A stretch of 60,797 nt of DNA. Source: a virus (taxonomy: Duplodnaviria > Caudoviricetes). Each line of letters begins with the position of its first letter. Within the stretch, counting starts at the first letter, position 1. Shown here in pieces: positions 15,133-59,808 of this stretch. Where the stretch lies: IMG/VR virus record IMGVR_UViG_3300037357_000143, positions 1 to 60,797 of that record. One strand, 5' to 3'. Below the pieces are notes generated by a model, which was not told the DNA's origin, ran no database searches, and saw nothing but the letters and a program-made list of their open reading frames with translations. The translations under genes and the position numbers were made by a program.

Positions 15133-15222
15133 AAGCGTCCGTATTTTCTAACTGACATGTAAGTTACAAGCAATTCTAAGCATTTTCCGCCATTTCTGTA
15201 ACTTACATGTCAGTTTTTTTGA
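15133..15222. repeat. right arm of the ~88-bp imperfect inverted repeat
   Basis: see 14680-14767. Confidence 0.85.
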
Positions 15223-15265
15223 ACAAAAATTTTAAGCAAGAAATTGCCCAGTAATACTTCCCGCA

Positions 15266-15298
15266 TATAACGATCGTTATGCACAAGTTTTATATACT
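15266..15298 (+). promoter_or_regulatory. operator palindrome plus rightward TATA promoter
   Basis: TATAACGATCGTTATG followed by AAGTTTTATATA. Confidence 0.7.
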
Positions 15299-15331
15299 AA
15301 TAGAAATATACTTTTATACAGGAGGTAGAGT

Positions 15332-15511
15332 ATGGTAATGAAAACAATACGTTTGACAAAAAAACAAATGGAAAAATTAAAAGAAATCAGTGAGATGATA
15401 AATAAAAATAATAGCTATTGTTCAACGACACAACTTATCCGAGACAGTATAGATCTTTTTCTTGAAAAGGATAAAAAAGAAATAGTTGAAGAATATAGTA
15501 ATTTATATTAG
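15332..15511 (+). CDS. ribbon-helix-helix (CopG/Arc/MetJ-like) regulator
   Basis: 59 aa, below the ORF-track cutoff: MVMKTIRLTKKQMEKLKEIS...STTQLIRDSIDLFLE; GGAGGT RBS. Confidence 0.7.
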   Translation: MVMKTIRLTKKQMEKLKEISEMINKNNSYCSTTQLIRDSIDLFLEKDKKEIVEEYSNLY

Positions 15512-15562
15512 GAAACATATATAAGTCAAAAGAAACAGACATATAAATAGGAGGAGATACGT

Positions 15563-15922
15563 TTGAAGGAAAAAGAAGTGTTAAAGAAAATAGATGAAAT
15601 TGGTGAAAAATTAGTGAGGTGCGAAGATCTAAGTAAAGAAGATGAAGAATTTCTTGAACAAGTGACTATTGATTACAATTTACCAGAAGCTTTTATTCAA
15701 AATAAAAAAATTTATGTGGAAATATTGTCCTTTTTTTCTGATTTAACAAAAATTTACAGTGTCGCATTAGTTATGACATCTCTAAGTGAAGTAATAGCTA
15801 ATATAATTAAAATAGATATGGAAGAAGTAGATAAACCTACGCTTCTCCATAGTGTACGTACATTTTTGAGTCCAGAATATCGATTAGATTTTGTTTTAGT
15901 GGAAAATAAAAAGGAGGGATAA
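15563..15922 (+). CDS. hypothetical protein
   Basis: GGAGGAG RBS; TTG start. Confidence 0.7.
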   Translation: MKEKEVLKKIDEIGEKLVRCEDLSKEDEEFLEQVTIDYNLPEAFIQNKKIYVEILSFFSDLTKIYSVALVMTSLSEVIANIIKIDMEEVDKPTLLHSVRTFLSPEYRLDFVLVENKKEG

Positions 15923-15924
15923 AA

Positions 15925-16347
15925 ATGGATAATTGTGAAATTTTACAAGTGATTAAAGAAAAATATCCATCGGCGGTTAGTATAGAACATGCAATTCCAT
16001 GTCCAATATTAAATGATCTTCCTCGTTTACGAGTGTTCTTCTTTAATAAAGAAGAAGCCGATTGGTTTGAGAAAGACTGTTTGGCACAAACTAGTACTGA
16101 CCCTAATTGGATGAGCAGAATATATAACAATTGTTATTATATTGTAGAATTTTTTAAAGAAGATATAGAAGAAATAGTCAAATTTTATCATGGAAATAGT
16201 GAACCTATTTTCCCAATGAGATTACCTATACTAAACGAAAAAAAGAGATTATATAGGAAAGTTGAAGAACTTAAAAGAGAAAATAATTGTTATAAAAAAC
16301 AAATTGATTGTTTAAAAATGAGGTTGGAAAATGTTCAAAAGAAATAA
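15925..16347 (+). CDS. hypothetical protein
   Basis: GGAGG RBS. Confidence 0.7.
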   Translation: MDNCEILQVIKEKYPSAVSIEHAIPCPILNDLPRLRVFFFNKEEADWFEKDCLAQTSTDPNWMSRIYNNCYYIVEFFKEDIEEIVKFYHGNSEPIFPMRLPILNEKKRLYRKVEELKRENNCYKKQIDCLKMRLENVQKK

Positions 16348-16873
16348 CGCAGAAGAAGAATATTATAAATGTAAATATGATTATACAAATGAAGAAAATA
16401 AAAAATTACTAGTGGAAAATACTCATTTAAAATATAAAATGTCAAGTTATGACTGCCAAGAAGCCGAGATTAAAAAATTAAAACAAAAAAATAACAAATT
16501 ACTAGTGGAAAATACTCATTTAAAATATAAAAAATGGAGAGCATATACGACGATCATTAAAAAATTAAAAGAAAAAAATAGCAAATTAGTAAAGGAAAAT
16601 GGATTTAAAGAAATTGAGAAAGCAAATTTGATATTTGAAAAAAGAAATTTAAAAGCAGAAATTAAAAGGATAAGAGAAAATAAAAAAGAACATCTTAGAG
16701 ATATGAGAATTAATGGTTTCAAAAATTATTGCCCTAACTGTGGAAATCGGGGACAATTGTATTATGATGATGAGGATGATAATATAATATGTGTACATTG
16801 TCTTCAAACATATTTTAAGAACAGTGGAGCAGGAATTAGCGGTTATAAAGACCTAGAAATGCCAGGGTGCTAA
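16331..16873 (+). CDS. coiled-coil protein with C-terminal zinc ribbon
   Basis: CPNCG...CVHC; identical 37-bp internal repeat at 16403-16439 and 16496-16532. Confidence 0.7.
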   Translation: MFKRNNAEEEYYKCKYDYTNEENKKLLVENTHLKYKMSSYDCQEAEIKKLKQKNNKLLVENTHLKYKKWRAYTTIIKKLKEKNSKLVKENGFKEIEKANLIFEKRNLKAEIKRIRENKKEHLRDMRINGFKNYCPNCGNRGQLYYDDEDDNIICVHCLQTYFKNSGAGISGYKDLEMPGC

Positions 16874-17944
16874 ATGATAATAGGAAGATACGACGAGAAA
16901 TTCCATTTCAAAGAGGTATTTAATACTGAGACTGGTTTCTCTGTCCGAACTGGAATATTAGATGAAAATGGTGAAGAGACGGAAGAAAACCCCTTCCAAT
17001 CTTCTTTCCCCCCACTCCTTGATATAGGCGTATGTGGAACGTGTAATACTGGTTTAAACGGCAAATGTAATGTTAAATGTTATCAATCAGGAAATGTCAA
17101 GCAAGAACCTAATATGAGTCTAAACGATTTTCGTGAGATTATATGCCAAGCAGAAAAGGGAGGAACTTTTCAAATAGCTATCGGGGGCAGAGGTGACCCC
17201 AATAAACATGAAGACTTCGAGAGATTGCTCCGTTATGCCCGGCGTAGTAATATTGTGCCAAATTATACTACCAGTGGATATGAATTAACAGACCGTGAAG
17301 TCGAAATAACAGGGAAACATGTGGGCGCAGTGGCAGTAAGTGAACATTTTGCTCAATATACTAGAGAGGCAATCGAAAATTTCGTAGCTGAAGGTGTGAA
17401 AACGAATCTACATTACGTTTTAAGTAACGACACAATCGGTAATGCTATAGAAATGTTGAAGAATGATGGTTTTGATAGGGGACTAAATGCAGTAATATTC
17501 CTTCTTTATAAACCAGTTGGGCTACAAAAAACTCTCTCTTCTATTTTAACACCGGATGATCCGATGGTAAAGGAGTTTTTCCAATTGATAGATAAGGAGA
17601 GTTATGATTTTAAAATAGGGTTAGATTCTTGTTCAACTCCTGGGGTTTTTAATTTCACCAAGAACATAAATAGAGACAGTATAGATGGTTGTGAAGCGGG
17701 TTTATTTTCCGCTTTTGTCACTCCTGATATGTTTTTACTACCATGTAGCTTTGAGCAAGACCGAAAGTATGCAGTTAATCTTCGAGAATTTACAATTCAA
17801 GAAGCATGGGATAGTCCAGAGTTTGAAGATTTTAGAAGTAAATTAAAAAAACAATGTCCAAAGTGTGAAAATCACGAAGATTGTAGTATATGCCCAATTG
17901 TACCAGAAATAACATTATGTAACAGAACTGAAAAGGAAATTTGA
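16874..17944 (+). CDS. radical SAM/SPASM domain protein with atypical Cys spacing
   Basis: CGTC-x7-C-x3-CYQ cluster motif, GGRGDP, NYTTSG; SPASM CEAG...PCSF...CxxCx5CxxC. Confidence 0.9.
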   Translation: MIIGRYDEKFHFKEVFNTETGFSVRTGILDENGEETEENPFQSSFPPLLDIGVCGTCNTGLNGKCNVKCYQSGNVKQEPNMSLNDFREIICQAEKGGTFQIAIGGRGDPNKHEDFERLLRYARRSNIVPNYTTSGYELTDREVEITGKHVGAVAVSEHFAQYTREAIENFVAEGVKTNLHYVLSNDTIGNAIEMLKNDGFDRGLNAVIFLLYKPVGLQKTLSSILTPDDPMVKEFFQLIDKESYDFKIGLDSCSTPGVFNFTKNINRDSIDGCEAGLFSAFVTPDMFLLPCSFEQDRKYAVNLREFTIQEAWDSPEFEDFRSKLKKQCPKCENHEDCSICPIVPEITLCNRTEKEI

Positions 17945-17963
17945 ATATTTGGAGGAATAAAAA

Positions 17964-18479
17964 ATGAGCAAGTACAAGTTGGATTTTGTCACGAATAGTA
18001 GTAGTACGTGTTATGTGTGCGAAATAACCGGAGAAAGAGAATCAGGAATGGACGCAGATGCCGAAGATTTAGGTTTTTATTTATGTTCAAATGGGCATGA
18101 ATATTTAGAAAAATACCGGCTCGACCATAAGAAATTTTTCCCTAAAGAAAAGGCAATAGAATTTTTAGAAGAAATAATAAAAGAAAGTAAGTGCACAGAT
18201 AAAACAGGGCGTTATAAAGAATACTTAGAAAAACTAAAAATAGATAATGAATTCGCAGATGAAATAATTGGAGATTTAACGGAAGAAAGAAGCTTCGGCC
18301 GATGTTCTGATGGTGATGGCTCGACGATTCTTTGTCCAATTTGTCAAATGGAATACATTCGAGATAAAGATATGCTTAAATTTTTCTTAAAATTAAATGG
18401 CAAAAGGGAAGATGTTGTTAAATTAATGAAAGCGCAATACCCTACTTACGAAGATATGAGAAGGGATTTAGATGGATAG
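17964..18479 (+). CDS. DFVTNSSS-motif protein 1 (with zinc-ligand motifs)
   Basis: DFVTNSSSTCY at residues 7-17; CxNGH and CPIC. Confidence 0.8.
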   Translation: MSKYKLDFVTNSSSTCYVCEITGERESGMDADAEDLGFYLCSNGHEYLEKYRLDHKKFFPKEKAIEFLEEIIKESKCTDKTGRYKEYLEKLKIDNEFADEIIGDLTEERSFGRCSDGDGSTILCPICQMEYIRDKDMLKFFLKLNGKREDVVKLMKAQYPTYEDMRRDLDG

Positions 18480-18849
18480 TGACCCTCCTCTATGGATTAA
18501 AGAATATGCACGGAGAGCGATAGAAGCTCACATAAGTCGTGGGTTCTTTGTTGATATGGGACAGAAACAATTAATTGAATTCATCAATGAGAATTTAGAA
18601 CATGGTTGTAATTATTGCGGTTGTGAACTTAAATACATTGATACCAATTCATCTAAAATAAAACCGTGGGATATTGACCCACATTGCATAAGCCTTGATA
18701 TTATTAATCCCAAGAACCGTAGTTTAAATAGAAAAAATATTCAACTTCTATGTCATGAGTGTAATCTAACTAAAGGACACCATAATCATCAAGAACATAT
18801 AAAATATTGCAGAGATTTGGCGGTTAGATTTGGAGAAGCGTGGGGATAA
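18472..18849 (+). CDS. HNH/His-Me finger-like protein
   Basis: CxxC...SLDIINP...NIQLLCHECNLTKG. Confidence 0.65.
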   Translation: MDSDPPLWIKEYARRAIEAHISRGFFVDMGQKQLIEFINENLEHGCNYCGCELKYIDTNSSKIKPWDIDPHCISLDIINPKNRSLNRKNIQLLCHECNLTKGHHNHQEHIKYCRDLAVRFGEAWG

Positions 18850-18899
18850 TTTTAAATAACATAAAAAACAAATAATATAATAGTGGAGGTTAGATGTAA

Positions 18900-19115
18900 A
18901 TGTATATAAAAGAAGAAAATAACAATTGTAAGTGTTGTGGGGGAAGAGGGACACAATTTAATCATAAAACTGGTTTAACAGTTCATTGTCCTTGTTGCCT
19001 TGGAACTGGGAAAGAGAATAATTTCAAAAAAGATCGAATTATATGGGAAGGAAAACCGCTTACTGGGAATTTGATGGAATATGGTGCGAGTGAAAAGAGA
19101 TTTTGTTACAAATAG
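18900..19115 (+). CDS. DnaJ-type zinc-finger protein
   Basis: two CxxCxGxG motifs. Confidence 0.65.
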   Translation: MYIKEENNNCKCCGGRGTQFNHKTGLTVHCPCCLGTGKENNFKKDRIIWEGKPLTGNLMEYGASEKRFCYK

Positions 19116-19437
19116 TAGCTCAACATGTTATATAATTACGAATAAAACAAATAAAGATCTTGAGTTAGAAGAATTTGTAAAAGAAAACCCTCAATTATTA
19201 AAACAATTTCTTAGAGAATATAATTGGTATGCAAGGGAAAAAGAATTTAATCCTGAAATGATGATTTCTTGTGCTAAAAAAAGAGAACGGCTAAAATCAG
19301 GAATTAATTACAGGGAATTTGGAGATCATAATGATCCAGTAGATAATGATGTTCTTGGCCATGTGTTTGATTATATTTTACGCAAAAATGGAGAATCAAA
19401 ACGATTTAAATGGGAATTTGATTATTTTAATAGGTGA
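19081..19437 (+). CDS. DFVTNSSS-motif protein 2
   Basis: identical DFVTNSSSTCY at residues 7-17. Confidence 0.8.
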   Translation: MVRVKRDFVTNSSSTCYIITNKTNKDLELEEFVKENPQLLKQFLREYNWYAREKEFNPEMMISCAKKRERLKSGINYREFGDHNDPVDNDVLGHVFDYILRKNGESKRFKWEFDYFNR

Positions 19438-21227
19438 TAAGAAAGATGTATGTAGAATTATACGACTCAGATACAATAGATGGTTGGATTGATTGCCCAT
19501 TTAAATATGATGAGGAACTGGTAAATATATTTAGGAAGCAACCTAAAAGAACTTATGATGGTGCTCGTCGTATTTGGTCTATCCCAAAAGATGGTGTAAG
19601 TCATCTTATAGCTGATTGTAAAAAGGCAAGTATAGATGTTATAGATAAACGTGGGAATGGTGAAAAAGCAAACCATAATATGGCCGTTACTATTCGGAAC
19701 GATGGTTTTATCACTAATTTTGGTGAAGTTAAAGTACGTCCTGAAATGAGTCGTATGTATTACCTCAAAAGACCTCGTGATGGATATAGGGTTGCTGAAA
19801 TTCTAAATGCCGAAGGGTTTAAGGTTAAGGTTAAAGATAAAGTAAAAAATAATCCAATTAAGATGCATCCAAACGTTCAGTTATATCCATTTCAAGAAGA
19901 ATGTATGCAATTCTTACGCCAAAATGATTATAACGGTTTAGTTGCCCTCGATATAGGTTTAGGAAAGACAATGGTGTCCTGTAAGGCTATTGAAGAAATA
20001 GGAAAGGGCCCAGTCCTCGTGGTTGCGCCCTCCTCTCTATTATATCAATGGAAAGAGGAAATGGAAACTAAATTCAGTTATATGAATGCGACAGTAGTAA
20101 CAAGTAAAATAAAAGCGGAAGATAGATTAGAAGCAGTAGAACGAGCACTTAAAGGCGGGATAATGATAACTAATTATGAATTTCTTCGCACCATTCCTAT
20201 TAAATTCCAAGTAGAACTGTTAATTCTTGACGAAGCTCATAGAGTTAGAAACTGGAATACAAAGACTGCAAAAGTGATAGGAAATATTCCTGCACGTCAC
20301 GTAATTGGCCTTACTGGGACTCCAATAGTTAATCATTTGAAAGAATTATATCATATAACAGATCAGATAAAGCCGGGATTTTTTGGAACTATGAAGAGTT
20401 TCTATGGGAAATATGTGAATAAAGATGGGTATAAATCAACATATAAAGATTTAGAAGGTGTCTATGAAAGATTAAATGACTTGATGTATCGTAAAAGAAA
20501 ACAAGATGTATTAATGCAATTGCCTAAACGCATTACACAAACAATATATGTTCAGCTTACAAAACAAGAGAGAGATTTTTATGAAGATATGTTAGCTTCC
20601 CAACCTCATATTTTAGCAGCGATTTCAAACGCGAAGGTATTTGGTGTGTCTTCAACACTTAGGATTGAGAAGTTAGATATGTCTTCAAAAGAAAAAGAAT
20701 TAATGACTGTTTTAAATGAATTACATGGACAAATTATATTATTTTGTGAGTCTAAGACAGAGGTTAAACGATTAGGAGAAATGGATTTAAAAAGAGAATC
20801 ATTTGTATTACATGGTGATTCAAATAAAGAACAGAGAGAAACGGTGAGAAAGAAATTCCGTGATTCATCAGATGGAATTCTTTTAATGACCGAGATAGGA
20901 ACAGAAGGTCTTAATTTACAATATGCAGGTAATCTTATTAATTTTTCAATACCCTGGACTTATTCAGCATTGGAGCAAAGAATAGGTAGAATTGAAAGAT
21001 TAGGAAGCGACTTCGATACGGTAAATGTGGTTAATATGCTTACAGATAATACGATCGATAATCATGTTTCGGAAGTTGTGGCGGACAAAGCTCATTTATT
21101 TAATATGACAGTGGATGGAGCAAAACAAGAAGTATCGAGGAAATTTGCTAGTGACTTATTCAGCATGGGTATAAAAGTCAATAGCGATGGTTTCTTAAGT
21201 AGAGTTAAGGAAAAGGTGAAAGCATGA
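19434..21227 (+). CDS. SNF2-family helicase/ATPase
   Basis: DIGLGKT, DEAH, LTGTPIVN, EGLNLQ, QRIGRIERLG motifs. Confidence 0.9.
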   Translation: MIRKMYVELYDSDTIDGWIDCPFKYDEELVNIFRKQPKRTYDGARRIWSIPKDGVSHLIADCKKASIDVIDKRGNGEKANHNMAVTIRNDGFITNFGEVKVRPEMSRMYYLKRPRDGYRVAEILNAEGFKVKVKDKVKNNPIKMHPNVQLYPFQEECMQFLRQNDYNGLVALDIGLGKTMVSCKAIEEIGKGPVLVVAPSSLLYQWKEEMETKFSYMNATVVTSKIKAEDRLEAVERALKGGIMITNYEFLRTIPIKFQVELLILDEAHRVRNWNTKTAKVIGNIPARHVIGLTGTPIVNHLKELYHITDQIKPGFFGTMKSFYGKYVNKDGYKSTYKDLEGVYERLNDLMYRKRKQDVLMQLPKRITQTIYVQLTKQERDFYEDMLASQPHILAAISNAKVFGVSSTLRIEKLDMSSKEKELMTVLNELHGQIILFCESKTEVKRLGEMDLKRESFVLHGDSNKEQRETVRKKFRDSSDGILLMTEIGTEGLNLQYAGNLINFSIPWTYSALEQRIGRIERLGSDFDTVNVVNMLTDNTIDNHVSEVVADKAHLFNMTVDGAKQEVSRKFASDLFSMGIKVNSDGFLSRVKEKVKA

Positions 21228-21409
21228 GAGTAAAACCTCTTAGTGATTATGAAAATGAGCATTTAAAATTAGTAGCACAATTTGGAACAGATGATGATTT
21301 TTTAGGATATACTGAAGAATTAAGGTTAAAATATAATTTGTCAGATAAAATAATTGATTATTTGTTTGATATAACAGATGAGATTAGGAATCCAAGGGTG
21401 TTTGGATGA
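21224..21409 (+). CDS. hypothetical protein
   Basis: GGTGA RBS; ATGA overlap. Confidence 0.6.
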   Translation: MRVKPLSDYENEHLKLVAQFGTDDDFLGYTEELRLKYNLSDKIIDYLFDITDEIRNPRVFG

Positions 21410-21434
21410 ATAGAAGAAATATAGGAGTGAAAAT

Positions 21435-21743
21435 ATGAAACGTGGAGAAAAAGGTTATTGGTTAAATACAGAAAAGAGGATTTGGCAGGATATAGTTAAA
21501 CCTTGTAAACTTTGTGGTTTTTGTCCTTATGGCCAACTTGTTGAAGAATTTCCGTTGTATCCGTACAGACCAGAGGGTGCAGACTTGAATGAATTAGCAA
21601 GAGAGGGAAAATTAGATACAAAATATTCCTGTCAGGTTTTTGGACATGACTGTCCAGTGTTTTATCACGCAGAACCGTTACATGAAGATAATGATTTGAC
21701 ACAAGAAGATATAGACGCAATGGATAAGGAATTAGGTGATTAA
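21435..21743 (+). CDS. Cys-rich hypothetical protein
   Basis: CxxCxxCPYGxLVE...CxxFGHDCP. Confidence 0.7.
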   Translation: MKRGEKGYWLNTEKRIWQDIVKPCKLCGFCPYGQLVEEFPLYPYRPEGADLNELAREGKLDTKYSCQVFGHDCPVFYHAEPLHEDNDLTQEDIDAMDKELGD

Positions 21744-24242: not shown

Positions 24243-24301
24243 ACGTTTAGCATTTTAAGATTCGTGGGAAAAAAATTTGAAATAGTTTGTGGAGGAATTT
24301 A

Positions 24302-25099
24302 ATGGAAGCGAGGGAAAGAATAGAATTGATAAATTTTTTAAAGAATGAAGTACATAATAGAAATGGTATACTCTTAAATGTGTGTATAAGTGGAAGCCAT
24401 TTATATGGGTGGGAATCAGAAGATTCAGATGTTGATATACGTGGGACTTTCGCTTTAAACCATCGGGAATTTTTTAAACTCTGCACTAACGGCTTACCAA
24501 GATCTAAGCGGACCATGCATATTAAAAATCACCCCAATCCAGACTATGATATTGAGTTTTTTGAATTAGGGAATGCCACCGAAAAAGCTCTCAAAAGTAA
24601 CTGCACAATTCATGAGATGTTACATGCCCCGCAGATATATCAAACAAAAGAATTTATAGATTATTTGCCAACTGTTAGAAATATTTGGGGTAAAACGATT
24701 CACTATAGTTATAAAGGGATGACTATGAATAACTATGAGGATTTTATTTGTAAAGGTAGGGCTACAGCTAAAAAGTGGCTTTATGTGTTTAGGGGTATTC
24801 TCGCAGGTCTTTATGCGCTTGAACAACATGAAATTGAACCGAATATGAATATTCTGGCTAAATATTACAGAACGCCTGGAATTAAAAAAATATTAAAGAT
24901 CAAAAAAGAAGGGAAAGAAGATGAACCATTTCATGATTCAGACACAGGTGAAATTGATGCGCTTTATAATAAATTGTTAGATAAATTCGATAAAGCATAT
25001 GAAAAAAGTGATCTACCTTACGGCCCGACAAAAGAAGAGAAAAATAAAGCATGGGATATGGTGGCTACCATCAGACAGGAATTGGGGATGAATAGATAA
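24302..25099 (+). CDS. Pol-beta superfamily nucleotidyltransferase (YcgL/RlaP, T4 NrdC.11-like)
   Basis: SGSHLYG-x5-SDVDIRG motif; KKWLYVFR. Confidence 0.85.
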   Translation: MEARERIELINFLKNEVHNRNGILLNVCISGSHLYGWESEDSDVDIRGTFALNHREFFKLCTNGLPRSKRTMHIKNHPNPDYDIEFFELGNATEKALKSNCTIHEMLHAPQIYQTKEFIDYLPTVRNIWGKTIHYSYKGMTMNNYEDFICKGRATAKKWLYVFRGILAGLYALEQHEIEPNMNILAKYYRTPGIKKILKIKKEGKEDEPFHDSDTGEIDALYNKLLDKFDKAYEKSDLPYGPTKEEKNKAWDMVATIRQELGMNR

Positions 25100-34543: not shown

Positions 34544-35332
34544 ATGTTAGCAATTCAAGGAAGAACTCTTGAACTAGTTTGGCCGCAAATTATCAAAGCC
34601 ATTATGAAGAAAGGAGAAGAGGTTATTGACCAACGTGGTTCAAAAACAAAAGAATTGACTAATGTGGTATGGACGATAAATGATCCTGAAGCTTCAGGAA
34701 TTCCAGAGGGGAACCCTTTAGGCCCTAATGCTCTTGAACAATATAAAAATCAATTTCTTGACCCAGAATTACATGATTTTATTTACACATACGGAAATAG
34801 ATTAAATAAATATGAGATATTTTACCCAATTTTAAGTAAAGAAAAAGAAGAACTTTTTAAAAAGATAAAAGAAATGAAGTTTCCAAAAATTGAAAAAGAC
34901 AGTAATCTTACTTCAGAAGAAAAAATAGAAAAAATTCGTGATAAAAAATTAGAAGAATTTCATAAAGTAATGTTAAATGGAAGATATTATTTTTTGAACC
35001 AAGTTAAACAAACGATTGATTATTTAAAAGAAAACCCCAATACTAGACGGGCAATTATGATAACGTGGAAATTTCCTGTAGATTTTCTTGTTGAGGAAGT
35101 ACCTTGCTTAATTATGGTTGATTTTTTAATAAGAGAAGGGAAACTTTTAACGACGGCGGTTTGGAGAAGTCATGACGCTTTCGGAGCCATGACAGCGAAT
35201 TTTATGGCACTTAGAGAATTATCAAGACATGTTGCTGAAGAAGTAGGGATTTCTGTTGGTCCTATAACTATTCAAAGTATTAGTGCTCACATTTATGAAT
35301 ACAATTTTGAAGAAGCTAAGGGTGTTTATTAA
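34544..35332 (+). CDS. thyA: thymidylate synthase, archaeal type
   Basis: YTYGNRL, TRRA, VPCL (catalytic Cys), RSHD, AN, SAHIY. Confidence 0.85.
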   Translation: MLAIQGRTLELVWPQIIKAIMKKGEEVIDQRGSKTKELTNVVWTINDPEASGIPEGNPLGPNALEQYKNQFLDPELHDFIYTYGNRLNKYEIFYPILSKEKEELFKKIKEMKFPKIEKDSNLTSEEKIEKIRDKKLEEFHKVMLNGRYYFLNQVKQTIDYLKENPNTRRAIMITWKFPVDFLVEEVPCLIMVDFLIREGKLLTTAVWRSHDAFGAMTANFMALRELSRHVAEEVGISVGPITIQSISAHIYEYNFEEAKGVY

Positions 35333-35751
35333 TGAAGACTGATATGTATTATAGAATCCATCATCCCAATGTATGGAAAAAGGAACGATTTAAACAAGCA
35401 TTAAAAACTGCACGTAAAATTAGGGAAAGGAGAAAAACTCTCGAAGATCTTCTTTCTGGGGATTGTGTCAGTAAAGCATTGGAAGCTATAGGAATTGCCA
35501 TGAGTAATCTTGGGGCAATAACAAACCAAGTTGTAGAACAAATGGCCGAAGCTGCGCGACAAATTAATGTTTCTTTTGGAATAAATCCAACCAATAAGGA
35601 GATAGAAAATCAAATAATTTATGGTACACCCTACCCTAAACAAATTCATCATTATAATCTCAAGCCTAAAACGATTGAATATTATACATCTTATTTGAAC
35701 CCTTATTTTAAAGCGGGGTGCCCAGGAGGATTAATATGGAAAAGCCAATAA
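35332..35751 (+). CDS. hypothetical protein
   Basis: TAATG coupling. Confidence 0.6.
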   Translation: MKTDMYYRIHHPNVWKKERFKQALKTARKIRERRKTLEDLLSGDCVSKALEAIGIAMSNLGAITNQVVEQMAEAARQINVSFGINPTNKEIENQIIYGTPYPKQIHHYNLKPKTIEYYTSYLNPYFKAGCPGGLIWKSQ

Positions 35752-36602
35752 TTATATGTATTGTTGGAGAGAGTGGAAGCGGTAAAACTTTAATGACCGA
35801 ATGGGTTGAATATAAATATGATATTCCAATGATTCAAAGTTATACAGATCGTTTAAAACGAGATGAAAAGGATATTGGGCATACATTCTTAACGAAAGAA
35901 GAATATGATAAATTAAAAGAAGAAGATATGATTGCTCATACCCAATGGGGAAAACATAGATATTCTTGTTTAAAACAAGATGTTAATAAGCCTATAATGA
36001 CTTATGTTCTTGATGAGCATGGTTTGTTGTATTTAAAAGAACATTTCAAATTTGATTATAAAATTGTCGCAGTTCGTGTTTATCGGGATGAAAAAGAAAG
36101 ACTCAAAACGGTAGGTGAAGAACGTGTAGGCCGTGATGAAGGTAAATTTAATTTATGGGACGATTCTTATAATTATATTCTTTATAATGATTCGACAGGA
36201 GATTTTTTCATAGAGATAGACAAAGTTATAAATAAGATATTAGGAAGATACCAGGTTTGTATATATGTAGCAGGAAAACTTAATAGTAAATCAGCTCCCT
36301 ATCTTAGGAATGTTCATAAAATGGTTAAATATGCTGAAAAAATTCGGAAATTAGGATTTTGTGTTGTAGTTCCGGGCAATGATCTAATACATGGAATAAT
36401 TTGCGGGGAACATGAATATTCTGATTATTTTAACAACAATATTGAAATTATGAAAAGATGTGATGCTTTAGCTCTTGTTGATAATTGGAAAGAAAGTGAA
36501 GGGACCAAACGAGAAATTAAAGAAGCAAAAGAACAAGGGCTTCCTGTTTTGAAGACTTTTGGAGATGTATTAAGATATAAAATATTGATGAAAATACATT
36601 AG
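35736..36602 (+). CDS. guanylate-kinase-like NMP kinase fused to a DUF4406/nucleoside deoxyribosyltransferase-like domain
   Basis: GESGSGKT, SYTDR, HTFLT; C-terminal IYVAG...CDAL...WKESEGTKREI. Confidence 0.75.
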   Translation: MEKPIIICIVGESGSGKTLMTEWVEYKYDIPMIQSYTDRLKRDEKDIGHTFLTKEEYDKLKEEDMIAHTQWGKHRYSCLKQDVNKPIMTYVLDEHGLLYLKEHFKFDYKIVAVRVYRDEKERLKTVGEERVGRDEGKFNLWDDSYNYILYNDSTGDFFIEIDKVINKILGRYQVCIYVAGKLNSKSAPYLRNVHKMVKYAEKIRKLGFCVVVPGNDLIHGIICGEHEYSDYFNNNIEIMKRCDALALVDNWKESEGTKREIKEAKEQGLPVLKTFGDVLRYKILMKIH

Positions 36603-37849: not shown

Positions 37850-38080
37850 ATGGATTGTAGGGTTTGTGAGAATTATAAAAATTGGGAATTTGATTGCACA
37901 GTTTATTGTTCGGATCCTCCAAAAATATGTAATGATTGTAAATATTTCTTTAGTGATTGTATGGGAGAGGAAGGAGGATTCGAAGTTTGTGAACATCCTG
38001 CTTATTATAGAAAAGTATATATAAGAAATGGAATTTCTAATACGTGTCCTTTAACAAAAGAATATTGGTATGAAGAATGA
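37850..38080 (+). CDS. Cys-rich small protein
   Basis: multiple CxxC. Confidence 0.6.
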   Translation: MDCRVCENYKNWEFDCTVYCSDPPKICNDCKYFFSDCMGEEGGFEVCEHPAYYRKVYIRNGISNTCPLTKEYWYEE

Positions 38081-39549
38081 AAGAACTAATCCAGCAGATA
38101 AAAAATTGTAAATTATGTGCGATTGAATCCAACACCAAAAATAAAACCATTGGAAAAGGTTCATTTGACCCGAAATATCTCTTCATAGGTCTTAACCCAG
38201 GAAAAGAGGAAAACGAGGTTGGCGTTCCATTCATTGGACCTAGCGGTAAGCTTCTCGACAAATGGATAGAATTTTTAGGTTTAACTAAAGATGAATATTC
38301 AGTTGTTAATATAATTAAATGTTTCACTCCAGACGAATCCGGATTAAATGGTGACGAAGCCGACAATTGTCTCCCTTTTCTATTAAAACAAATCGAGTTA
38401 TTGAACCCTCAATACATTTTTACTTTAGGAGCGATACCAACTAAAAAACTATTGAATATGGAAGGCATAACATCATTAGCTGGTAAGCATTTCAGAAAAG
38501 ATGGTATAATTTATTTCCCTTTTCCACACCCATCCTTTTTTTTGAGACAAGGAGGTTTCGGTTGGCAAGAGCCTTTGGGAATAATAAAACAATTTATTCA
38601 CGATGAGGAATTCCAACAACAATCCCCACTCAAAAAACTTGAATTAATTGATCCTGGTTTAATTAACCCTAAACTTTCTACTCATTCTAAACAATCTTAT
38701 ATTCCTCTTCATGTCCATACTACCTATTCTATCGGAGATTCTCCTTTAAAAATACCTGATTTAGCAAGGGATGCTAAAGATATGGGCTTTGATACGCTCG
38801 CATGTACAGATCACGGCACAGTTACAGGGTGGTTTGAGTTTCAACAAGAATGTGAGAAGGAAGATATTAAACCCATTTTGGGAGTAGAATTTTATATCGC
38901 AGATAATTATGAGGAAAAAACAAAAAATCGTTATCACCTCGTAGCTCTTGCGAAAAATAATGAGGGTATGCACAATATTCTTAAGCTTGTAGATATCTCG
39001 AACCGTGTTGGATATTATTTTAAACCTCGGATAACCTTAGAGGATTTGTATAAATATAAAGAAGGTCTCGTTGTTTTAACTGCATGTGTCGAAGGGGTAA
39101 TCGCTAAGAGGTTATTGCACGATCAGAAAGAAAAAGCGGAAGAAGTGTTAGCAAAACTGAAAGAAGAGTTCGGAGAAGACGTGTATCTTGAACTCCAACC
39201 TCACGATTTTCCGATGCAAGCTGAACTGTCTCCTATGCTTGTGGAATTATCAGAGAAATATTCTGTCCCGCTGGTTATAACAACCGACGTTCATTTCATC
39301 AAAAAGGCAGACTATCGTATTAAGCAAGCTCTTAACGCTATCGCTTGGGGAAAAACCCTAGAAGATTCAAAAACATATGGAGCTCCAACTAATTATCTCA
39401 TGGAAACAAATGAAATGCTACAATACCCATATGTAACTGAAGAAGTGATTAAAGAAGCGATGGCAAACACCGTTAAAATAGGGGAGAAGTGTAATTCGCG
39501 ACTGGAAAAGTATGTGGATGCACTTCCTCTCTTTGAGATGAAAGAATGA
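38077..39549 (+). CDS. family-4-like uracil-DNA glycosylase fused to the PHP domain of DNA polymerase III alpha (split DnaE, N-terminal part)
   Basis: CKLC, GLNPG, PFIGPSG, IKC, HPSF (UDG); HVHTTYS, TDHG, GVEFY, H, C, TTDVHF (PHP); ends at the LPLF linker. Confidence 0.9.
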   Translation: MKELIQQIKNCKLCAIESNTKNKTIGKGSFDPKYLFIGLNPGKEENEVGVPFIGPSGKLLDKWIEFLGLTKDEYSVVNIIKCFTPDESGLNGDEADNCLPFLLKQIELLNPQYIFTLGAIPTKKLLNMEGITSLAGKHFRKDGIIYFPFPHPSFFLRQGGFGWQEPLGIIKQFIHDEEFQQQSPLKKLELIDPGLINPKLSTHSKQSYIPLHVHTTYSIGDSPLKIPDLARDAKDMGFDTLACTDHGTVTGWFEFQQECEKEDIKPILGVEFYIADNYEEKTKNRYHLVALAKNNEGMHNILKLVDISNRVGYYFKPRITLEDLYKYKEGLVVLTACVEGVIAKRLLHDQKEKAEEVLAKLKEEFGEDVYLELQPHDFPMQAELSPMLVELSEKYSVPLVITTDVHFIKKADYRIKQALNAIAWGKTLEDSKTYGAPTNYLMETNEMLQYPYVTEEVIKEAMANTVKIGEKCNSRLEKYVDALPLFEMKE

Positions 39550-40437: not shown

Positions 40438-40700
40438 TGGTCGGAAGCGACGACGAAGGGTTGAACCCATATCGCGGTAAAACTCCCTCTAAGAAAAACA
40501 ATGGGGAAGTAACGACTTTAAACGCTTATAAATTGGGTTGTAAGTTTTGTCCATACCTAGGATATAGATATAATTGGTTTATATGTACACATCCGGATTC
40601 AGTTAGAGATTACCCTATACGTTGGCTCAGCCACAGAGAGGAACCAAGAAAAGTTCCAAAGGCGTGCCCATTGAGAGAGGAAGAAAATGAAAAGAATTAA
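40437..40700 (+). CDS. Cys-containing hypothetical protein
   Basis: CKFCP...C...CPL. Confidence 0.6.
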   Translation: MVGSDDEGLNPYRGKTPSKKNNGEVTTLNAYKLGCKFCPYLGYRYNWFICTHPDSVRDYPIRWLSHREEPRKVPKACPLREEENEKN

Positions 40701-41355
40701 ACTGACTCAAAATCAATTCACAAAAGTTGATGATGAAGACTATGAATGGCTTATCAAATGGAATTGGCAAGCAACACAGGATAAAACTGTTAAACATAAA
40801 AAGCAATATTATGTTAGAAGACGAGAGTTTCAAAAGGTAGATCCTATACGTCCTACAATAAGAATGCATCGCGTGATTATGGAAGAGTTTTTGAGACGAA
40901 AACTAGAATCATGGGAACAAATTGATCATATTGATGGTGATGGCTTACACAATGAAAAAGAAAATTTAAGAGTTGTTAATAATAGAGAAAATTGTCAAAA
41001 TCGACATTGTTTTAAAACTTCAAAATATCCTGGAGTTTGTTGGAATAAAAGAGAACAAAAATGGCAAGCTCAAATTCGAATAAATGGGATAAATAAATAT
41101 TTAGGTTCTTTTTATAATGAAATAGAAGGTAAAAAAGCCTATGAATGGGCAAACAATGAATTAAAAAAAGATAATCCTATCCCAAATTTAAGAATAAAAA
41201 CAAGTAAATATAAAGGAGTTTTTTGGGATAAGGAAGTAAAAAAATGGAGAGTTGAAATTACTAGAAATGGGAAGCGAAAATATTTAGGACGTTTTAGTGA
41301 CGAGCAAAAAGCAGCAGAGGCTTATTTATATGAAAAGGAAAAATTATCTAGTTAA
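40687..41355 (+). CDS. HNH endonuclease with two AP2 domains
   Basis: RMHR, IDHIDGDGLHNEKENL; two TSKYxGVxW...YLGxF repeats. Confidence 0.9.
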   Translation: MKRIKLTQNQFTKVDDEDYEWLIKWNWQATQDKTVKHKKQYYVRRREFQKVDPIRPTIRMHRVIMEEFLRRKLESWEQIDHIDGDGLHNEKENLRVVNNRENCQNRHCFKTSKYPGVCWNKREQKWQAQIRINGINKYLGSFYNEIEGKKAYEWANNELKKDNPIPNLRIKTSKYKGVFWDKEVKKWRVEITRNGKRKYLGRFSDEQKAAEAYLYEKEKLSS

Positions 41356-43804
41356 TTTATGTCAACTTCGGGCAGTTAAGAAAGGGATAGATTTAGAAGA
41401 TAAAGATTATAAAAAAAGATTTAATTATGAACTTTCAGTTATAGAACAAAAAGGATATATTGATTATTTTTTAATCGTATCTAACATAATAGATGATGCT
41501 AGAGAGAAAAGAATTGAAATGGGATATGGACGTGGAAGCATTGGCGGCTCATTAATTGCCTTTCTTTTAGGGATTACTGAAATAAATCCTCTTAAATATA
41601 ATTTGCTTTTTGAACGTTTTTTAAATATTTCCAGAAATGAGCCACCAGACGCGGATATAGATTATCAAAAGTTTCGACGTGAAGAGGTAATTGAATATAC
41701 TCGAGAAAAATATGGAGAAGCAAATGTTTGCAATATTGTTAACTTTTCTAGATTTAAAGCAAAGAATACAACAAAAGATGTTTCTCGTATATTTGGAATT
41801 TCTTTTAAAGAAGTGAACAAAGTTACTGCCTTAATCGATAAAAATATGAGTTTAGATGATGCAATCAATAAAATTCCAGAAGTTAAAAATTTCTATGAAA
41901 AATATCCTGAATTAAAAGAAATTGCTTATTCTCTTGAAGGAGCTATTAGAGGTCTATCTAAGCATGCTGCCGGCATATTAATCACTAGAAGAAAAATTTC
42001 TGATTATATATCAACGGTTAAAGTAAAAGGAACAATTTGTTCTTGTTTTGATAAAGATGGGATAGAAGATTTAGGTTTACTTAAATTTGATTTTCTCGGA
42101 CTAAGAAGTTTAGATGTAATCGCTAAGACGAAAGAATTGATTGGTAAAGATATTAAGTTACCAACGGAGTTTGACGATCCTGAAGTTTATAAAATTTTTC
42201 AAAATGATGCTGCTTTTACTTTTCAATTTGATACTTTATTACTGACGAATATGGCTAGAGAGATGCAAATTTCTGATTTTAAAACCTTGTGTGCGGCCAC
42301 AGCATGTGTTAGACCAGGAATTCAAAATTCAGGATCGGCTAAAAGATATATTGATAGATTATTAGGTAGGAAACCAGTTAAATATTTACATGAATCTTTA
42401 AAACCATATTTAGAAGATACTCTTGGAGAAATATTATTTCAAGAGACGATAATGGCAATAGCTAATGAACTGGGTGGTATAGAATTATCACGTTCATATC
42501 AAATGATTAAAGCAATATCTAAGTCAAAGGGTATCGATGTTATTAATAAATATAGAAATGAGTTTGTAGAAGGATGTTTTGAAAATAAGATCCCAAAGGA
42601 TATTTCTAATAAGATATTTGACATTATTCAGGAATCAGGAGCTTATTCATTCAATAAATCGCACGCTGTGGGTTATTCGGCTCTTTCTTACATCACTGCA
42701 TGGCTTAAAACATATTATCCCAAACAATTCCTTATTGCTACTATTCATTATCCAAAAGACGGTAAAAAAGAAGAAAAAAGAGAAACACTTATTCAAGCTA
42801 TTCGAGAATTACGGAAAATTGGATATGAAGTTCAAGTCCCCGATATTAACTTGTCTATTGATTCAATCAGTATCGCAGAGAATGGAGGCATCTATATGGG
42901 ACTATCTGATGTCGCGGGTGTCGGCAAAGAAGCAGTCAAAGAAATTTTATTGTACCAACCCTACGGGTCTTTCGATGAATTCGTGGGAAAAGTACAAAAG
43001 AGAAAAGTGAAAAAGAACATCCTTCTCAACCTCATTCAAGCAGGTGCCTTCGATAAGTTCGAAAGACGTGATGAATTGTATTCGAGAATTACAGAAGAGC
43101 CATACCGAGTATGGGAAGATGTGGAAATGTTAACGCGTCAGATGACTGTTCTTGATCTTCCTTCTGCCAAACCAATTATTGATTATTATGAGAACAAATA
43201 TGAGGGTTATGTTAACATAACCCTGATTGAAGATATTGATCCAAATGTAAACGAAAAAGAAATTTGGGTGCGGGGAATTATATCTGATTATAAAACTCGA
43301 AGTATCGCGTCCAAACTTAGTGAATCTCTAGGAATCGAAAAGAAAATTGCTCTTTTTACTGTTGATGATGGGACCAAACGGTTAGAGTGTTCCGTCCCTC
43401 CTGAAATTTATACTTTTAGTAAAGAACTTTTAAATGATGGAGAACCTGTTGTATTAAAAGGGCATACTTATAATTCTAGATTGTATGTCGACGGTATCTT
43501 GAATTTGACTCAGAACAACGATGAAATCTTAGAGAAATATATTTATACTCATGGCCGAGAAAAGGAGATAGAAGATTTAGAATCGCAGCCTGGTCATAAT
43601 AATGTCAGCGTCATTGTATCATTAAATTATAGGCTCTCTAAAAACGGAAATCAGTACGTACAGATCCATGATCAAAATGGAGAAAGATTGATGTGGTTTG
43701 GCAGAGGGCAGGCCTTTAAAAATCTTAAACCAGGCAAGATAATAGTTTGGAATAAGAGTGACGATAGTAAACCATTTATTAATATGGAGAAGGTGATAAG
43801 TTGA
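41330..43804 (+). CDS. dnaE: DNA polymerase III alpha catalytic core (split DnaE, C-terminal part)
   Basis: GRGSIGGSL, FERFLN, PDADID, SKHAAG, KFDFLGL, FNKSHAVGY, OB domain; ATG 41330 preferred over GTG 41297. Confidence 0.92.
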   Translation: MKRKNYLVNLCQLRAVKKGIDLEDKDYKKRFNYELSVIEQKGYIDYFLIVSNIIDDAREKRIEMGYGRGSIGGSLIAFLLGITEINPLKYNLLFERFLNISRNEPPDADIDYQKFRREEVIEYTREKYGEANVCNIVNFSRFKAKNTTKDVSRIFGISFKEVNKVTALIDKNMSLDDAINKIPEVKNFYEKYPELKEIAYSLEGAIRGLSKHAAGILITRRKISDYISTVKVKGTICSCFDKDGIEDLGLLKFDFLGLRSLDVIAKTKELIGKDIKLPTEFDDPEVYKIFQNDAAFTFQFDTLLLTNMAREMQISDFKTLCAATACVRPGIQNSGSAKRYIDRLLGRKPVKYLHESLKPYLEDTLGEILFQETIMAIANELGGIELSRSYQMIKAISKSKGIDVINKYRNEFVEGCFENKIPKDISNKIFDIIQESGAYSFNKSHAVGYSALSYITAWLKTYYPKQFLIATIHYPKDGKKEEKRETLIQAIRELRKIGYEVQVPDINLSIDSISIAENGGIYMGLSDVAGVGKEAVKEILLYQPYGSFDEFVGKVQKRKVKKNILLNLIQAGAFDKFERRDELYSRITEEPYRVWEDVEMLTRQMTVLDLPSAKPIIDYYENKYEGYVNITLIEDIDPNVNEKEIWVRGIISDYKTRSIASKLSESLGIEKKIALFTVDDGTKRLECSVPPEIYTFSKELLNDGEPVVLKGHTYNSRLYVDGILNLTQNNDEILEKYIYTHGREKEIEDLESQPGHNNVSVIVSLNYRLSKNGNQYVQIHDQNGERLMWFGRGQAFKNLKPGKIIVWNKSDDSKPFINMEKVIS

Positions 43805-44326: not shown

Positions 44327-44574
44327 GTTTTGCAAAAGAAATTAAGAGCTATCAAGAAGAATTTGGAGCAAGAGTTTTTGAATGGATAAAAGAAAATATA
44401 GACAAATTATATTCGGAAAAAATGATTAAAGCTCAAGTAATTCTTTTGACTCCTTGGGATTATAAATTTTTGAATGAGTATTCACCTCCTATAATAATTG
44501 ATGGTGAAATTAAAACAATTTTTGGTGTTAGAATTTATAAAATAGATTATTTAGATGAATCGAGGGTGTATTAA
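44323..44574 (+). CDS. hypothetical protein
   Basis: coupled operon ORF. Confidence 0.6.
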   Translation: MSFAKEIKSYQEEFGARVFEWIKENIDKLYSEKMIKAQVILLTPWDYKFLNEYSPPIIIDGEIKTIFGVRIYKIDYLDESRVY

Positions 44575-45329
44575 TGGGAAAACAAATTCGTTTGAGTAAA
44601 TCGGCAATCACAAAATTCAATGCTTGCCCTTATGATTTTTTTGTAGATTACATCCTTGGGGAAAGACATAATAGACCTGACCCTCCTAAAGGGAGTCCTA
44701 TGGCTATTGGTACAGAGGTGCACCAGATATTCGAGGACTATTATTCGCTACCGGCGGCGAAGGATGTCGAAGAACCTTATAACGAAACAATATTAGACCT
44801 TTTAATGACGCTTCCAAATGGTAAAGATCATCCTGTCCACATGATGAATTTTGCTGGATGGAATGCTAAAATCATTGAAGAAAAAGGAATCGAAAATTAT
44901 TTTCCAATCGAAACAGAAGCCAGTTATTATGACGAAGAGTTAAATGTCATTGGAATCATAGATAGGGTGGATGAGTGTTCGGATGGATTAAGAGTTATTG
45001 ATTATAAAACTGGAAAAGATAAAGTGATTCTTAGTAAAAAAAGAGATGGGACTCTTGTTGATAACCATTACTTTGAATTAGCTTTTTATGCTCTTCTTTA
45101 TGAGAGGCAAACTGGAAAAGTGGTCAATGATGCTGGTATTTATTTTTCTAAGACAAATAAGCTTAGAGTAATGCCGATCACTGATATTGATCGTGAGTAC
45201 GGATATGAAAAAATTAGAGAGTGCCGGGAGGCGATAACGCGGGATGAATATTTTACAAATCCAAATTATCTTTGTAAATGGTGTGAAAATGGGAACATTT
45301 GTGAAGAAAATACAGAGGCATGGTTTTGA
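44574..45329 (+). CDS. PD-(D/E)XK RecB-family exonuclease
   Basis: LSKS...CP, GTEVH, GIIDRVD, VIDYKTG, C-terminal CxxC...C. Confidence 0.85.
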   Translation: MGKQIRLSKSAITKFNACPYDFFVDYILGERHNRPDPPKGSPMAIGTEVHQIFEDYYSLPAAKDVEEPYNETILDLLMTLPNGKDHPVHMMNFAGWNAKIIEEKGIENYFPIETEASYYDEELNVIGIIDRVDECSDGLRVIDYKTGKDKVILSKKRDGTLVDNHYFELAFYALLYERQTGKVVNDAGIYFSKTNKLRVMPITDIDREYGYEKIRECREAITRDEYFTNPNYLCKWCENGNICEENTEAWF

Positions 45330-55235: not shown

Positions 55236-55307
55236 ACTGCCGTAGTCCAACGGAAGGACGGTTGGCTTTGGACCAGCTAATGTCGGGTTCAAGTCCCACC
55301 GGCAGTA
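55236..55307 (+). tRNA. tRNA-Gln(UUG)
   Basis: cloverleaf; loop CTTTGGA; A1-U72 as in archaeal tRNA-Gln. Confidence 0.9.
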
Positions 55308-55309
55308 TA

Positions 55310-55381
55310 TGCGGCGTAGAAAATTGAATATTCGACAGGCTCATGACCTGTAGAGAGTCGGTTTGATTCCGACCGTCGCAA
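55310..55381 (+). tRNA. tRNA-CAU (Met or Ile2)
   Basis: ACAGG-CTCATGA-CCTGT; atypical T loop. Confidence 0.75.
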
Positions 55382-55383
55382 TT

Positions 55384-55456: not shown

Positions 55457-55458
55457 TT

Positions 55459-59807: not shown

Positions 59808-59808
59808 T

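Follow-up and report, generated by a model that had tools for sequence, protein, structure and literature searches.

Why should two small phage proteins that resemble each other nowhere else begin with the same peptide, and why should their genes follow that of a radical S-adenosylmethionine (SAM) enzyme on the same strand? The question is posed by a stretch of 60,797 bases, the IMG/VR virus record IMGVR_UViG_3300037357_000143 (the window hereafter, meaning the whole of this DNA; CheckV completeness estimate 39%), which encodes a radical SAM/SPASM enzyme of 356 amino acids (aa) and two proteins of 171 and 118 aa that are headed by a common segment, the tag. The original prediction, made from the sequence alone, held that this segment serves recognition or modification by the enzyme, and the computational analysis presented here supports that reading. 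We consider it probable that the enzyme is a phage-encoded maturase with a universal N-terminal tag on proteins as its target, the tag serving for recognition and most likely also as the place where the enzyme acts. The pairing of radical SAM enzymes with tagged proteins recurs across many phages, and it looks like an undescribed viral way of modifying the virus's own proteins.

The tag and the proteins that carry it

In the two open reading frames (ORFs 17964-18479 and 19081-19437) the peptide DFVTNSSSTCY occupies residues 7-17 (DNA 17982-18014 and 19099-19131), and 5 of its 11 codons differ synonymously between them (GTC/GTT, ACG/ACA, AGT/AGC, AGT/TCA, ACG/ACA), exactly as originally described, down to the AGT and TCA serine codons. 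The shared motif is real, and it is longer than the 11 residues first ascribed to it: hhalign aligned the two proteins over 18 columns (residues 2-19) with a probability of 97.3%, which dropped to 0.29% after removal of the tag. The possibility that the two are homologous over their full length, which the original prediction had recognized as damaging to its own case, is therefore not borne out. A six-frame scan of the window found the motif nowhere beyond the two small ORFs.

The 118-aa protein has 60 relatives of ~115 aa, every one of which starts with the motif (alignment A2). The invariant residues of this family comprise N11, S12, S13 and S14 of the tag as well as G81, D82, D97, Y98, L100, R101 and W111, and additional motifs are FxxENPQL, FGDE and VFDYILRDGG. 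An AlphaFold2 model of the monomer attained a pLDDT (predicted local distance difference test) of 83, with residues 1-11 below 50 and modelled as disordered, and with the first strand spanning 14-21; a Foldseek search of the PDB with this model returned no fold match (best E-value 0.25). The 171-aa protein has 7 relatives (alignment A3, 8 sequences), and the invariant C19, C41, H45, C124 and C127 suggest that its body after the tag is zinc-ribbon-like. It matches no Pfam, NCBIfam or PHROG family and, by profile search, no solved relative in the PDB (best E-value 0.096); the PDB profile searches with three tagged families yielded best E-values from 0.096 to 0.18. The ESM Atlas search reported viral clusters without names only, and among cultured phages neither blastn with the region nor tblastn with the 118-aa protein gave any match. 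In related strains, seen as contigs of peat RNA libraries, the 171-aa gene has 196 other bases in place of 193 in its middle part (18139-18333) and an insertion of 18 bases behind position 18401; there the tag is kept and the body changes.

The tag is carried by far more proteins than these two. The viral loci drawn via the 118-aa family (58, several of them near-duplicates) contain many other ORFs headed by it, which lie in arrays on one strand, with as many as 13 in a 20-kb locus. Altogether, 606 complete tagged ORFs were found in the phage loci gathered (a figure that includes duplicates, as some loci overlap on the same contigs), and these form 130 sequence clusters. They are 61-279 aa long (median 131 aa), with a median net charge of -10 beyond the tag, and 94% of them are net negative. 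The logo of 203 non-redundant ORFs reads M-K-[IV]-[RK]-x-[DG]-F-V-[TS]-N-S-S-S-[ST]-S-[FY]-[IV]-[IV], 18 residues in all. The search pattern demanded N-[ST]-S-[ST] and left the flanking positions free, so the conservation of these four positions is partly imposed; among the positions that were not, M is found in 191 of the 203 ORFs, K in 189, F in 196 and V in 182. A profile built from the 130 cluster representatives and compared with 1.84 billion representative proteins retrieved 29,580 at E<=0.001 (525 at E<=1e-10), and in 146 of the 150 best matches the tag starts at residue 1. The other four contain two tags each and resemble fused neighbouring genes; in such two-tag ORFs (P0070, P0071, P0073, P0074, P0076) the internal tag still opens with M-K, and they could have arisen by loss of a stop codon, from faulty gene calling or from the use of an alternative genetic code. 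The tag is far above chance, the strict pattern having no match in 2.5 Mb of reversed control sequence.

Comparison of the 130 cluster representatives with Pfam gave no match, NCBIfam gave 2 marginal ones, and PHROGs gave only phrog_7397 ("unknown function"), for 15 of the 130. When the first 20 residues were stripped from the 16 largest clusters, hhalign reached a probability of at least 80% in 4 of the 120 pairs, and the mean column identity outside the tag is ~7%. By these comparisons the tag is a module on otherwise unrelated proteins and not the signature of a family. The merging of tagged proteins by BLAST single linkage (1e-5, 60% coverage; 238 of 244 proteins merged) was rejected as a sign of homology, because the matches were seeded by the tag and extended via acidic sequence with the composition correction off; stricter thresholds and the tag-stripped hhalign comparison split the proteins again. 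Two otherwise unrelated tagged families, those of alignments A2 and A9, share [FY]-G-D-E-[DQ]-G late in the sequence, and the phrog_7397-type family has LEHG...ISHH at its end, a possible metal site. No search supported an assignment of N-S-S-S to a VWA/MIDAS site (DxSxS), a PP-loop, a HAD motif, an intein-like Asn cleavage site or a pyruvoyl self-processing site.

Selection acts on the tag peptide, as had been proposed from the two proteins of the window: each serine of the tag is encoded by AGY in some genes and by TCN in others, and paralogues within a locus share the same codon at 0.50 of their identical residues, against 0.39 expected.

The radical SAM enzyme and its linkage to the tag

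The window's enzyme, as read from the translation, has the cysteines C54-x2-C57-x7-C65-x3-C69, of which C57, C65 and C69 are assigned to the cluster and C54 is extra. Alignment A4 comprises 19 members of this family (radical SAM family 1; 28-48% identity to the window protein, 38 invariant columns), most of which possess the canonical CxxxCxxC; the C57-x7-C65-x3-C69 segment aligns at that place, and C57 and C69 are invariant. The non-canonical spacing noticed at the outset is thus genuine in the window, and it is peculiar to the window's clade instead of characterizing the family. The glycine-rich, GGE-like motif of radical SAM enzymes binds SAM; GGRGDP, reported in the original prediction and found at residues 104-109, has an invariant glycine in alignment A4 (G104). 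The SPASM domain, likewise anticipated, exceeds the Pfam cut-off (PF13186, residues 273-332, 28.1 bits against 21.5, E-value 2.5e-6). The auxiliary-cluster cysteines comprise C253, C273 and C291, and the C-terminal segment CPKCENHEDCSICP contributes C328-x2-C331-x5-C337-x2-C340, a Cx2Cx5Cx2C arrangement one residue shorter than the canonical Cx2Cx5Cx3C. In alignment A4 the full C-terminal SPASM cysteine set is restricted to the window's clade and one other sequence, the rest having four cysteines in a twitch-like manner.

The Pfam Radical_SAM profile (PF04055) does not match the window protein at E<=0.1; its membership of the superfamily follows from the family alignment, since two relatives, L017 and L010, exceed the cut-off of 29.5 bits (34.6 and 31.8 bits, respectively; a third, L040, scored 19.2 bits). 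In PHROGs the enzyme matches phrog_7293 (4e-26). The best NCBIfam match is W_rSAM_matur with 43.1 bits against a cut-off of 380, and each of the window enzyme's matches to curated NCBIfam maturase families for ribosomally synthesized and post-translationally modified peptides (RiPPs) scores far below the cut-off, e.g. PqqE (27.5 against 381) and MftC (29.1 against 265). The relatives in family 1 and the members of families 2 and 3 (see below) also score far below the NCBIfam cut-offs for the named maturases (PqqE, MftC, SkfB, StsB, PapB, WgkB, YhhB and others), and the model for the anaerobic sulfatase-maturating enzyme (anSME) is absent from the NCBIfam matches of 6 family members. The nearest solved structures are SuiB (5v1q, 1.6e-7) and then SkfB (6.1e-6), and the closest solved or curated relatives of the enzyme, SuiB, SkfB, PqqE and MftC, are all maturases of peptides or proteins. 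A domain of the size of a RiPP recognition element (RRE) is not evident, the N-terminal extension in alignment A4 being only ~50 residues long.

The linkage of enzyme and tag was examined from three sides. Around the 58 loci drawn via the 118-aa family, radical SAM family 1 occurs within 10 kb in 35; a second family (343-354 aa, with the canonical CNLRCDYC) directly follows a tagged gene in 12 further loci without family 1 nearby, and a third, radical SAM/SPASM family is additionally present in 4 of the 58. A whole-contig search adds two loci (L008, L036), which brings radical SAM genes to 49 of the 58 tag-bearing contigs, 47 of them within 10 kb; eight of the remaining nine lie on contigs that are 2-49% complete, and the ninth, the only informative exception, is L035. 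From the side of the enzyme, 129 of the 160 loci picked by family 1 alone have tags within 10 kb (53/80 for clade B, 76/80 for clade C), with 394 of 395 tags on the enzyme's strand. For clade B, the tag closest to the enzyme gene is downstream of it without exception, at a median gap of 15 bp, and stop and start codons of tagged genes beside radical SAM genes often overlap. From the side of the tag, selection by the DNA pattern only (47 records searched, among the first 50 loci) returned family 1 in 33 of the 47 records, including 8 of the 8 that are at least 90% complete. The frequent occurrence of motif proteins without the enzyme, which the original prediction had named as a result that would speak against it, is contradicted by these counts (49/58 contigs, 33/47 tag-picked records).

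Five complete genomes contain 5-10 matches to the tag pattern each, mostly arrayed next to the enzyme; in one of them the radical SAM gene (144477-145508) is followed by six tags between 145562 and 147560. The variant of the tag goes with the enzyme clade regardless of the protein family: D-F-V-T-N accompanies enzymes of clade A, clade B and family 2, G-F-V-S-N those of clade C. This match can also arise by shared ancestry, but it does show that the variant belongs to the genome and not to the protein family. The tag pattern was further found in at least 600 stretches of genome and metagenome-assembled genome (MAG) contigs, against ~7 expected by chance (a rough estimate); the enzyme is present in 6 of the 10 such loci examined, including MAG contigs of Faecalimonas and Lachnoclostridium, in which it belongs to the window's clade. 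A contig of 178,077 bases filed under Flagellimonas marina (L222), comparable in length to RB16-like phage genomes, encodes tagged proteins of the type found in phage RB16 and is probably phage DNA in that assembly.

Among 50,697 phage records searched with tblastn, 172 contain the enzyme and 175 the tagged protein of the RB16p111 type (enzyme/tagged: Klebsiella 109/115, Enterobacter 20/20, Cronobacter 14/14, Citrobacter 11/11, Escherichia 9/9). Escherichia coli phage RB16 encodes the enzyme as RB16p156 and two tagged proteins, RB16p106 and RB16p111, the latter assigned to phrog_7397 (5.7e-118). PHROGs labels both phrog_7293 and phrog_7397 "unknown function", and the phage records call them "radical SAM protein" or "hypothetical protein". 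Residues 25-155 of RB16p106, used as a query for homologues without the tag, brought up 29 proteins, all of them close relatives. In its C-terminal part RB16p106 matches phrog_132, a "head-tail adaptor" (3.3e-10), and RB16p109, a large VWFA-like protein, is encoded between RB16p106 and RB16p111. As RB16 carries the system, a bench test is possible.

Co-folding of enzyme and peptide, which the original prediction had suggested as a check, passes its controls. With ESMFold2, the window's enzyme (alignment A4), SAM, three 4Fe-4S clusters and residues 1-45 of the 118-aa protein (alignment A2) gave ipSAE interface scores of 0.75, 0.80 and 0.82 in three runs, while the best of 3 controls reached 0.01; among 80 solved complexes 58 attained the pass mark, as did 2 of 110 mismatched pairs, counts that are only roughly valid here, with our own alignments used and small molecules included. 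The runs share at least 88% of their contacts, with a partner pLDDT of at least 64. In the model the interface is formed by tag residues 1-25, which are placed in the enzyme barrel: residues 15-19 pair with enzyme residues 247-252, and F8 and T10 contact residues 21, 102, 130, 152 and 154. From general radical SAM folds, we take enzyme residues 100-105, 128-132 and 151-154 to be the strand ends that line the SAM/substrate site. Of the 38 enzyme residues invariant in the family, 27 fall within the 69-residue interface (odds ratio 16). The co-fold thus supports binding of the tag in the barrel, as far as a model can.

A maturase reading and its rivals

Among described systems, the RiPP maturases of the radical SAM/SPASM type (SuiB/StrB of streptide, SkfB and CteB of sactipeptides, PqqE, MftC) are the nearest sequence relatives of the phage enzyme and share with it the radical SAM core followed by a C-terminal auxiliary-cluster domain. 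As in these systems, the substrate gene is adjacent and bears a conserved N-terminal recognition sequence, so that the usual hallmark of a RiPP locus (a precursor gene next to the maturase, with such a sequence) is found here. Unlike them, however, the phage enzyme is encoded by a virus, scores far below the NCBIfam cut-offs and has no evident RRE-sized domain; its putative substrates are full-length proteins of 61-279 aa in at least 130 clusters instead of short peptides, and their conserved part is apparently where the enzyme acts and not a separate leader. In its logic the proposed system also resembles anSME/AtsB, radical SAM/SPASM enzymes that modify the (C/S)xPxR motif of whole sulfatases, act without an RRE on many substrates per enzyme and have serine as a known target. 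There too a short conserved motif on whole proteins would be read by one enzyme for many substrates, but the phage motif FV[TS]NSSS lies at the extreme N terminus, contains no (C/S)xPxR, and its carriers are not sulfatases (Pfam 0/130). The internal proteins of phage T4 carry an N-terminal capsid-targeting sequence that the prohead recognizes and the prohead protease cleaves, with no associated radical SAM enzyme. It resembles the tag in being a short conserved N terminus on polymorphic, otherwise unrelated small phage proteins, whereas the tag differs in sequence and is found in early or replication regions beside a radical SAM gene. The counterparts of the system in cultured phages are phrog_7293 (enzyme) and phrog_7397 (tagged protein) of RB16-like, Slopekvirus and Pseudotevenvirus phages, the former being the family matched by the window enzyme. 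Literature word searches, with relevance judged without full texts, found nothing that links phrog_7293 and phrog_7397 or describes the motif, and PMC5219037 does not contain the word "radical".

We propose the following mechanism, which for the binding step leans on the co-fold model. The flexible first ~11 residues of a tagged protein would enter the partial TIM barrel of the enzyme from its open side, tag residues ~15-19 would add a strand to the enzyme strand 247-252, and F8-T10 would be positioned above those strand ends which in radical SAM enzymes bind SAM. We infer that SAM would then be reductively cleaved and that the resulting 5'-deoxyadenosyl radical would take a hydrogen from one of the residues of F-V-[TS]-N-S-S-S, with an electron passing to the auxiliary clusters. 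Candidate products are an intra-tag crosslink, an oxidized serine (as in formylglycine) or an epimerized residue; that the enzyme may install a cofactor or crosslink, perhaps on proteins already folded, was suggested in the original prediction. One enzyme would serve all tagged proteins of its genome, i.e. two in the window and those behind the 5-10 pattern matches in the five complete genomes. The substrates would be a very large, fast-diversifying set of small acidic proteins of the early region that need this step for activity, stability or localization, and we speculate that they are probably host-takeover or anti-defence effectors.

Several observations weigh against the maturase interpretation or reduce the force of its support. 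Many loci stem from related or overlapping contigs, and the linkage counts do not represent independent events; the co-occurrence in cultured phages amounts to one observation, as these form a single related lineage, and in RB16 the tagged genes lie ~20 kb from the radical SAM gene, though on the same strand. L035 (record G013), which is 78% complete, has four tags and no radical SAM gene was found in it; 27 of the 80 clade B loci have no tag in the flank and other genes downstream; and family 1 is missing from 14 of the 47 tag-picked records, all at most 60% complete, 4 of which contain another Radical_SAM match above cut-off. In the AlphaFold2 model the first strand of the 118-aa fold falls within residues 12-21, so the tag is partly structural. 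The enrichment of invariant residues at the co-fold interface is partly what any active site would show, the partner in the co-fold was a 45-residue piece and not the whole protein, and the score may owe part of its height to solved complexes of radical SAM enzymes with peptides. Finally, the probable effector role is suggested by size, charge, array organization and diversity, and by these properties only.

Other explanations have to be considered against the same evidence. The tagged proteins might be interchangeable adaptors or regulatory subunits, whose tag docks in the enzyme unmodified while the body brings in a substrate, be it a host protein, nucleic acid or metabolite, or gates activity. 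Linkage and co-fold would apply equally to such subunits, a single enzyme does stand beside many different bodies, and bodies such as the zinc-ribbon-like one of alignment A3 could bind other molecules. Nonetheless, the model seats tag residues 1-25 within the barrel at invariant active-site residues, which is the place of a substrate and not an outer surface, the relatives of the enzyme act on the bound peptide itself, and the invariance of N-S-S-S is stricter than docking usually needs; we regard the adaptor explanation as unlikely. About as unlikely, in our opinion, is a signal for localization, packaging, stability or degradation that is read by other machinery, with the adjacency of the radical SAM gene due to another cause. 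It would accommodate the extreme N-terminal position (from residue 1 in 146 of the 150 best matches), the polymorphic small carriers in arrays, the separate location of the tagged genes in RB16 and the 78%-complete L035 record with tags and no enzyme found; however, it leaves unaccounted for the three different radical SAM families encoded immediately next to tagged genes, where stop codons often overlap start codons, the enzyme in all 8 near-complete tag-bearing records, a co-fold that passes controls and a tag variant that tracks the enzyme clade. A signal role that follows modification would be compatible with the enzyme being a maturase.

If the tag carriers were one very divergent superfamily, strand 1 and the N-S-S-S loop would be its structural or catalytic core, for instance a metal or phosphate site together with the later G-D-E loop. 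Residues 12-21 indeed form strand 1 in the 118-aa model, the A2 and A9 families share [FY]-G-D-E-[DQ]-G, and loose BLAST linkage joins 238 of 244 proteins. This merging was seeded by the tag, however, and 116 of 120 family pairs lack profile similarity once the tag is stripped (the window pair retaining 0.29%); with the most conserved first 11 residues modelled as disordered, ~7% mean column identity outside the tag and no Pfam match for any of the 130 representatives, a common superfamily appears quite improbable. The repeat could also be a feature of the DNA, i.e. a site of recombination or cassette shuffling or an element of translation initiation, the peptide being incidental. Short genes arrayed with a shared 5' end do look like shuffling hot spots, and identical codons are slightly more frequent than expected (0.50 against 0.39), but codons differ in half of the pairs at identical residues, serines switch between AGY and TCN, which no single synonymous step connects, and conservation is far higher for amino acids than for nucleotides. 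A DNA-level origin is largely refuted by the codon data, and we give it hardly any credence.

A broader form of the maturase proposal, to which we are attracted with slightly less than even confidence, is that these systems constitute a worldwide, virus-specific class, in which a radical-derived modification (a crosslinked or cyclized N terminus or a serine-derived reactive group) is placed on the universal tag of tens of thousands of unrelated small acidic phage protein clusters, a plug-and-play maturation of host-takeover or anti-defence effectors for which three radical SAM families were recruited independently. If the enzyme is indeed a maturase, radical SAM maturation would extend from bacterial peptides and a small number of enzymes, sulfatases among them, to the protein repertoire of large phages, and new radical chemistry would be predicted on an Asn-Ser-Ser-Ser site. 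The tag would then be a one-line rule assigning 29,580 representative proteins of unknown function to a single pathway, a rare handle on viral "dark matter", and the tagged arrays would be candidates for undiscovered host-takeover or anti-defence functions. A portable 18-residue tag with its enzyme could also be useful for protein engineering. The question is directly testable in a cultured phage, given that RB16 encodes the enzyme and two tagged proteins.

The window and its other genes

The window represents the replication and early region of a large phage, with a DNA polymerase in two pieces, an anaerobic ribonucleotide reductase (NrdD), a primase, a SNF2 helicase and 23 tRNA genes. Its guanine plus cytosine content is 31.7%, and many peat metagenomes hold DNA near-identical to it. 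The features around the enzyme are collected in Table 1. The order of radical SAM gene and tagged ORFs on one strand stood as originally described, except that two ORFs between the tagged genes (18472-18849 and 18900-19115) had gone unmentioned. The first of these matches Pfam HNH below the cut-off (0.043) and is probably a mobile insertion outside the tag/radical SAM system. The second overlaps the start of tagged gene 2 with its 3' end, in a different frame; its CxxCxGxG motifs are presumably of the DnaJ zinc-finger type.

Table 1. Features of the radical SAM region of the window and the evidence for each
Feature	Position	Strand	Evidence or remark
Radical SAM/SPASM enzyme, 356 aa	16874..17944	+	Radical SAM family 1, phrog_7293
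Tagged protein 1, 171 aa, N terminus MSKYKLDFVTNSSSTCYVCE	17964..18479	+	19-base gap after the radical SAM gene
Tag of protein 1, residues 2-19, SKYKLDFVTNSSSTCYVC	17967..18020	+	Tag logo, hhalign
HNH/endonuclease VII-like ORF, 125 aa, overlapping the end of tagged gene 1	18472..18849	+	phrog_1035 1.3e-7, phrog_2214 6.8e-6
Cys-rich ORF, 71 aa, two CxxCxGxG motifs	18900..19115	+	Translation; phrog_3931 0.0086 only
Tagged protein 2, 118 aa, N terminus MVRVKRDFVTNSSSTCYIIT	19081..19437	+	Conserved ~115-aa family
Tag of protein 2, residues 2-19, VRVKRDFVTNSSSTCYII	19084..19137	+	Tag logo, hhalign, co-fold interface
SNF2 helicase	starts 19434	+	Pfam match

Scans of 15200-21500 revealed no excess of promoters (35 against 29.0 ± 5.0 in shuffled controls) or terminators (4 against 2.1 ± 1.3), so the operon is deduced from gene spacing and RNA-library contigs alone. 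In four peat RNA libraries contigs bridge the stop codon of the radical SAM gene and tagged gene 1 (17327-18139, 17744-18139 and 17745-18005), and a peat RNA-library contig spans 18442-19472. These contigs weakly support transcription of the region, given that RNA libraries can hold DNA and that contigs provide no transcript ends; stretches that the contigs leave uncovered are uninformative.

Elsewhere in the window, the DNA polymerase (phrog_405) is split into ORFs 38077-39549 and 41297-43804 by a 1.7-kb insert with three ORFs, including an HNH-AP2 homing-endonuclease-like gene (40687-41355). The NrdD-like anaerobic ribonucleotide reductase (50491-52542, phrog_487, 4.7e-81) is in keeping with an anoxic (peat) host and with radical enzymes that are sensitive to oxygen. 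A transposase-like ORF (53161-54324, phrog_506, 1.7e-95) lies just upstream of the tRNA array (55236-60796), whose 23 genes are all on the + strand and cover most amino acids. Other predicted products are an RlaP-type nucleotidyltransferase (24287-25099), a thymidylate-synthase-like protein (34544-35332), a fusion of guanylate-kinase and nucleoside 2-deoxyribosyltransferase-like domains (35718-36602) and a PD-(D/E)XK nuclease (44574-45329), and ORF 46715-47533 shows a weak match to LAGLIDADG.

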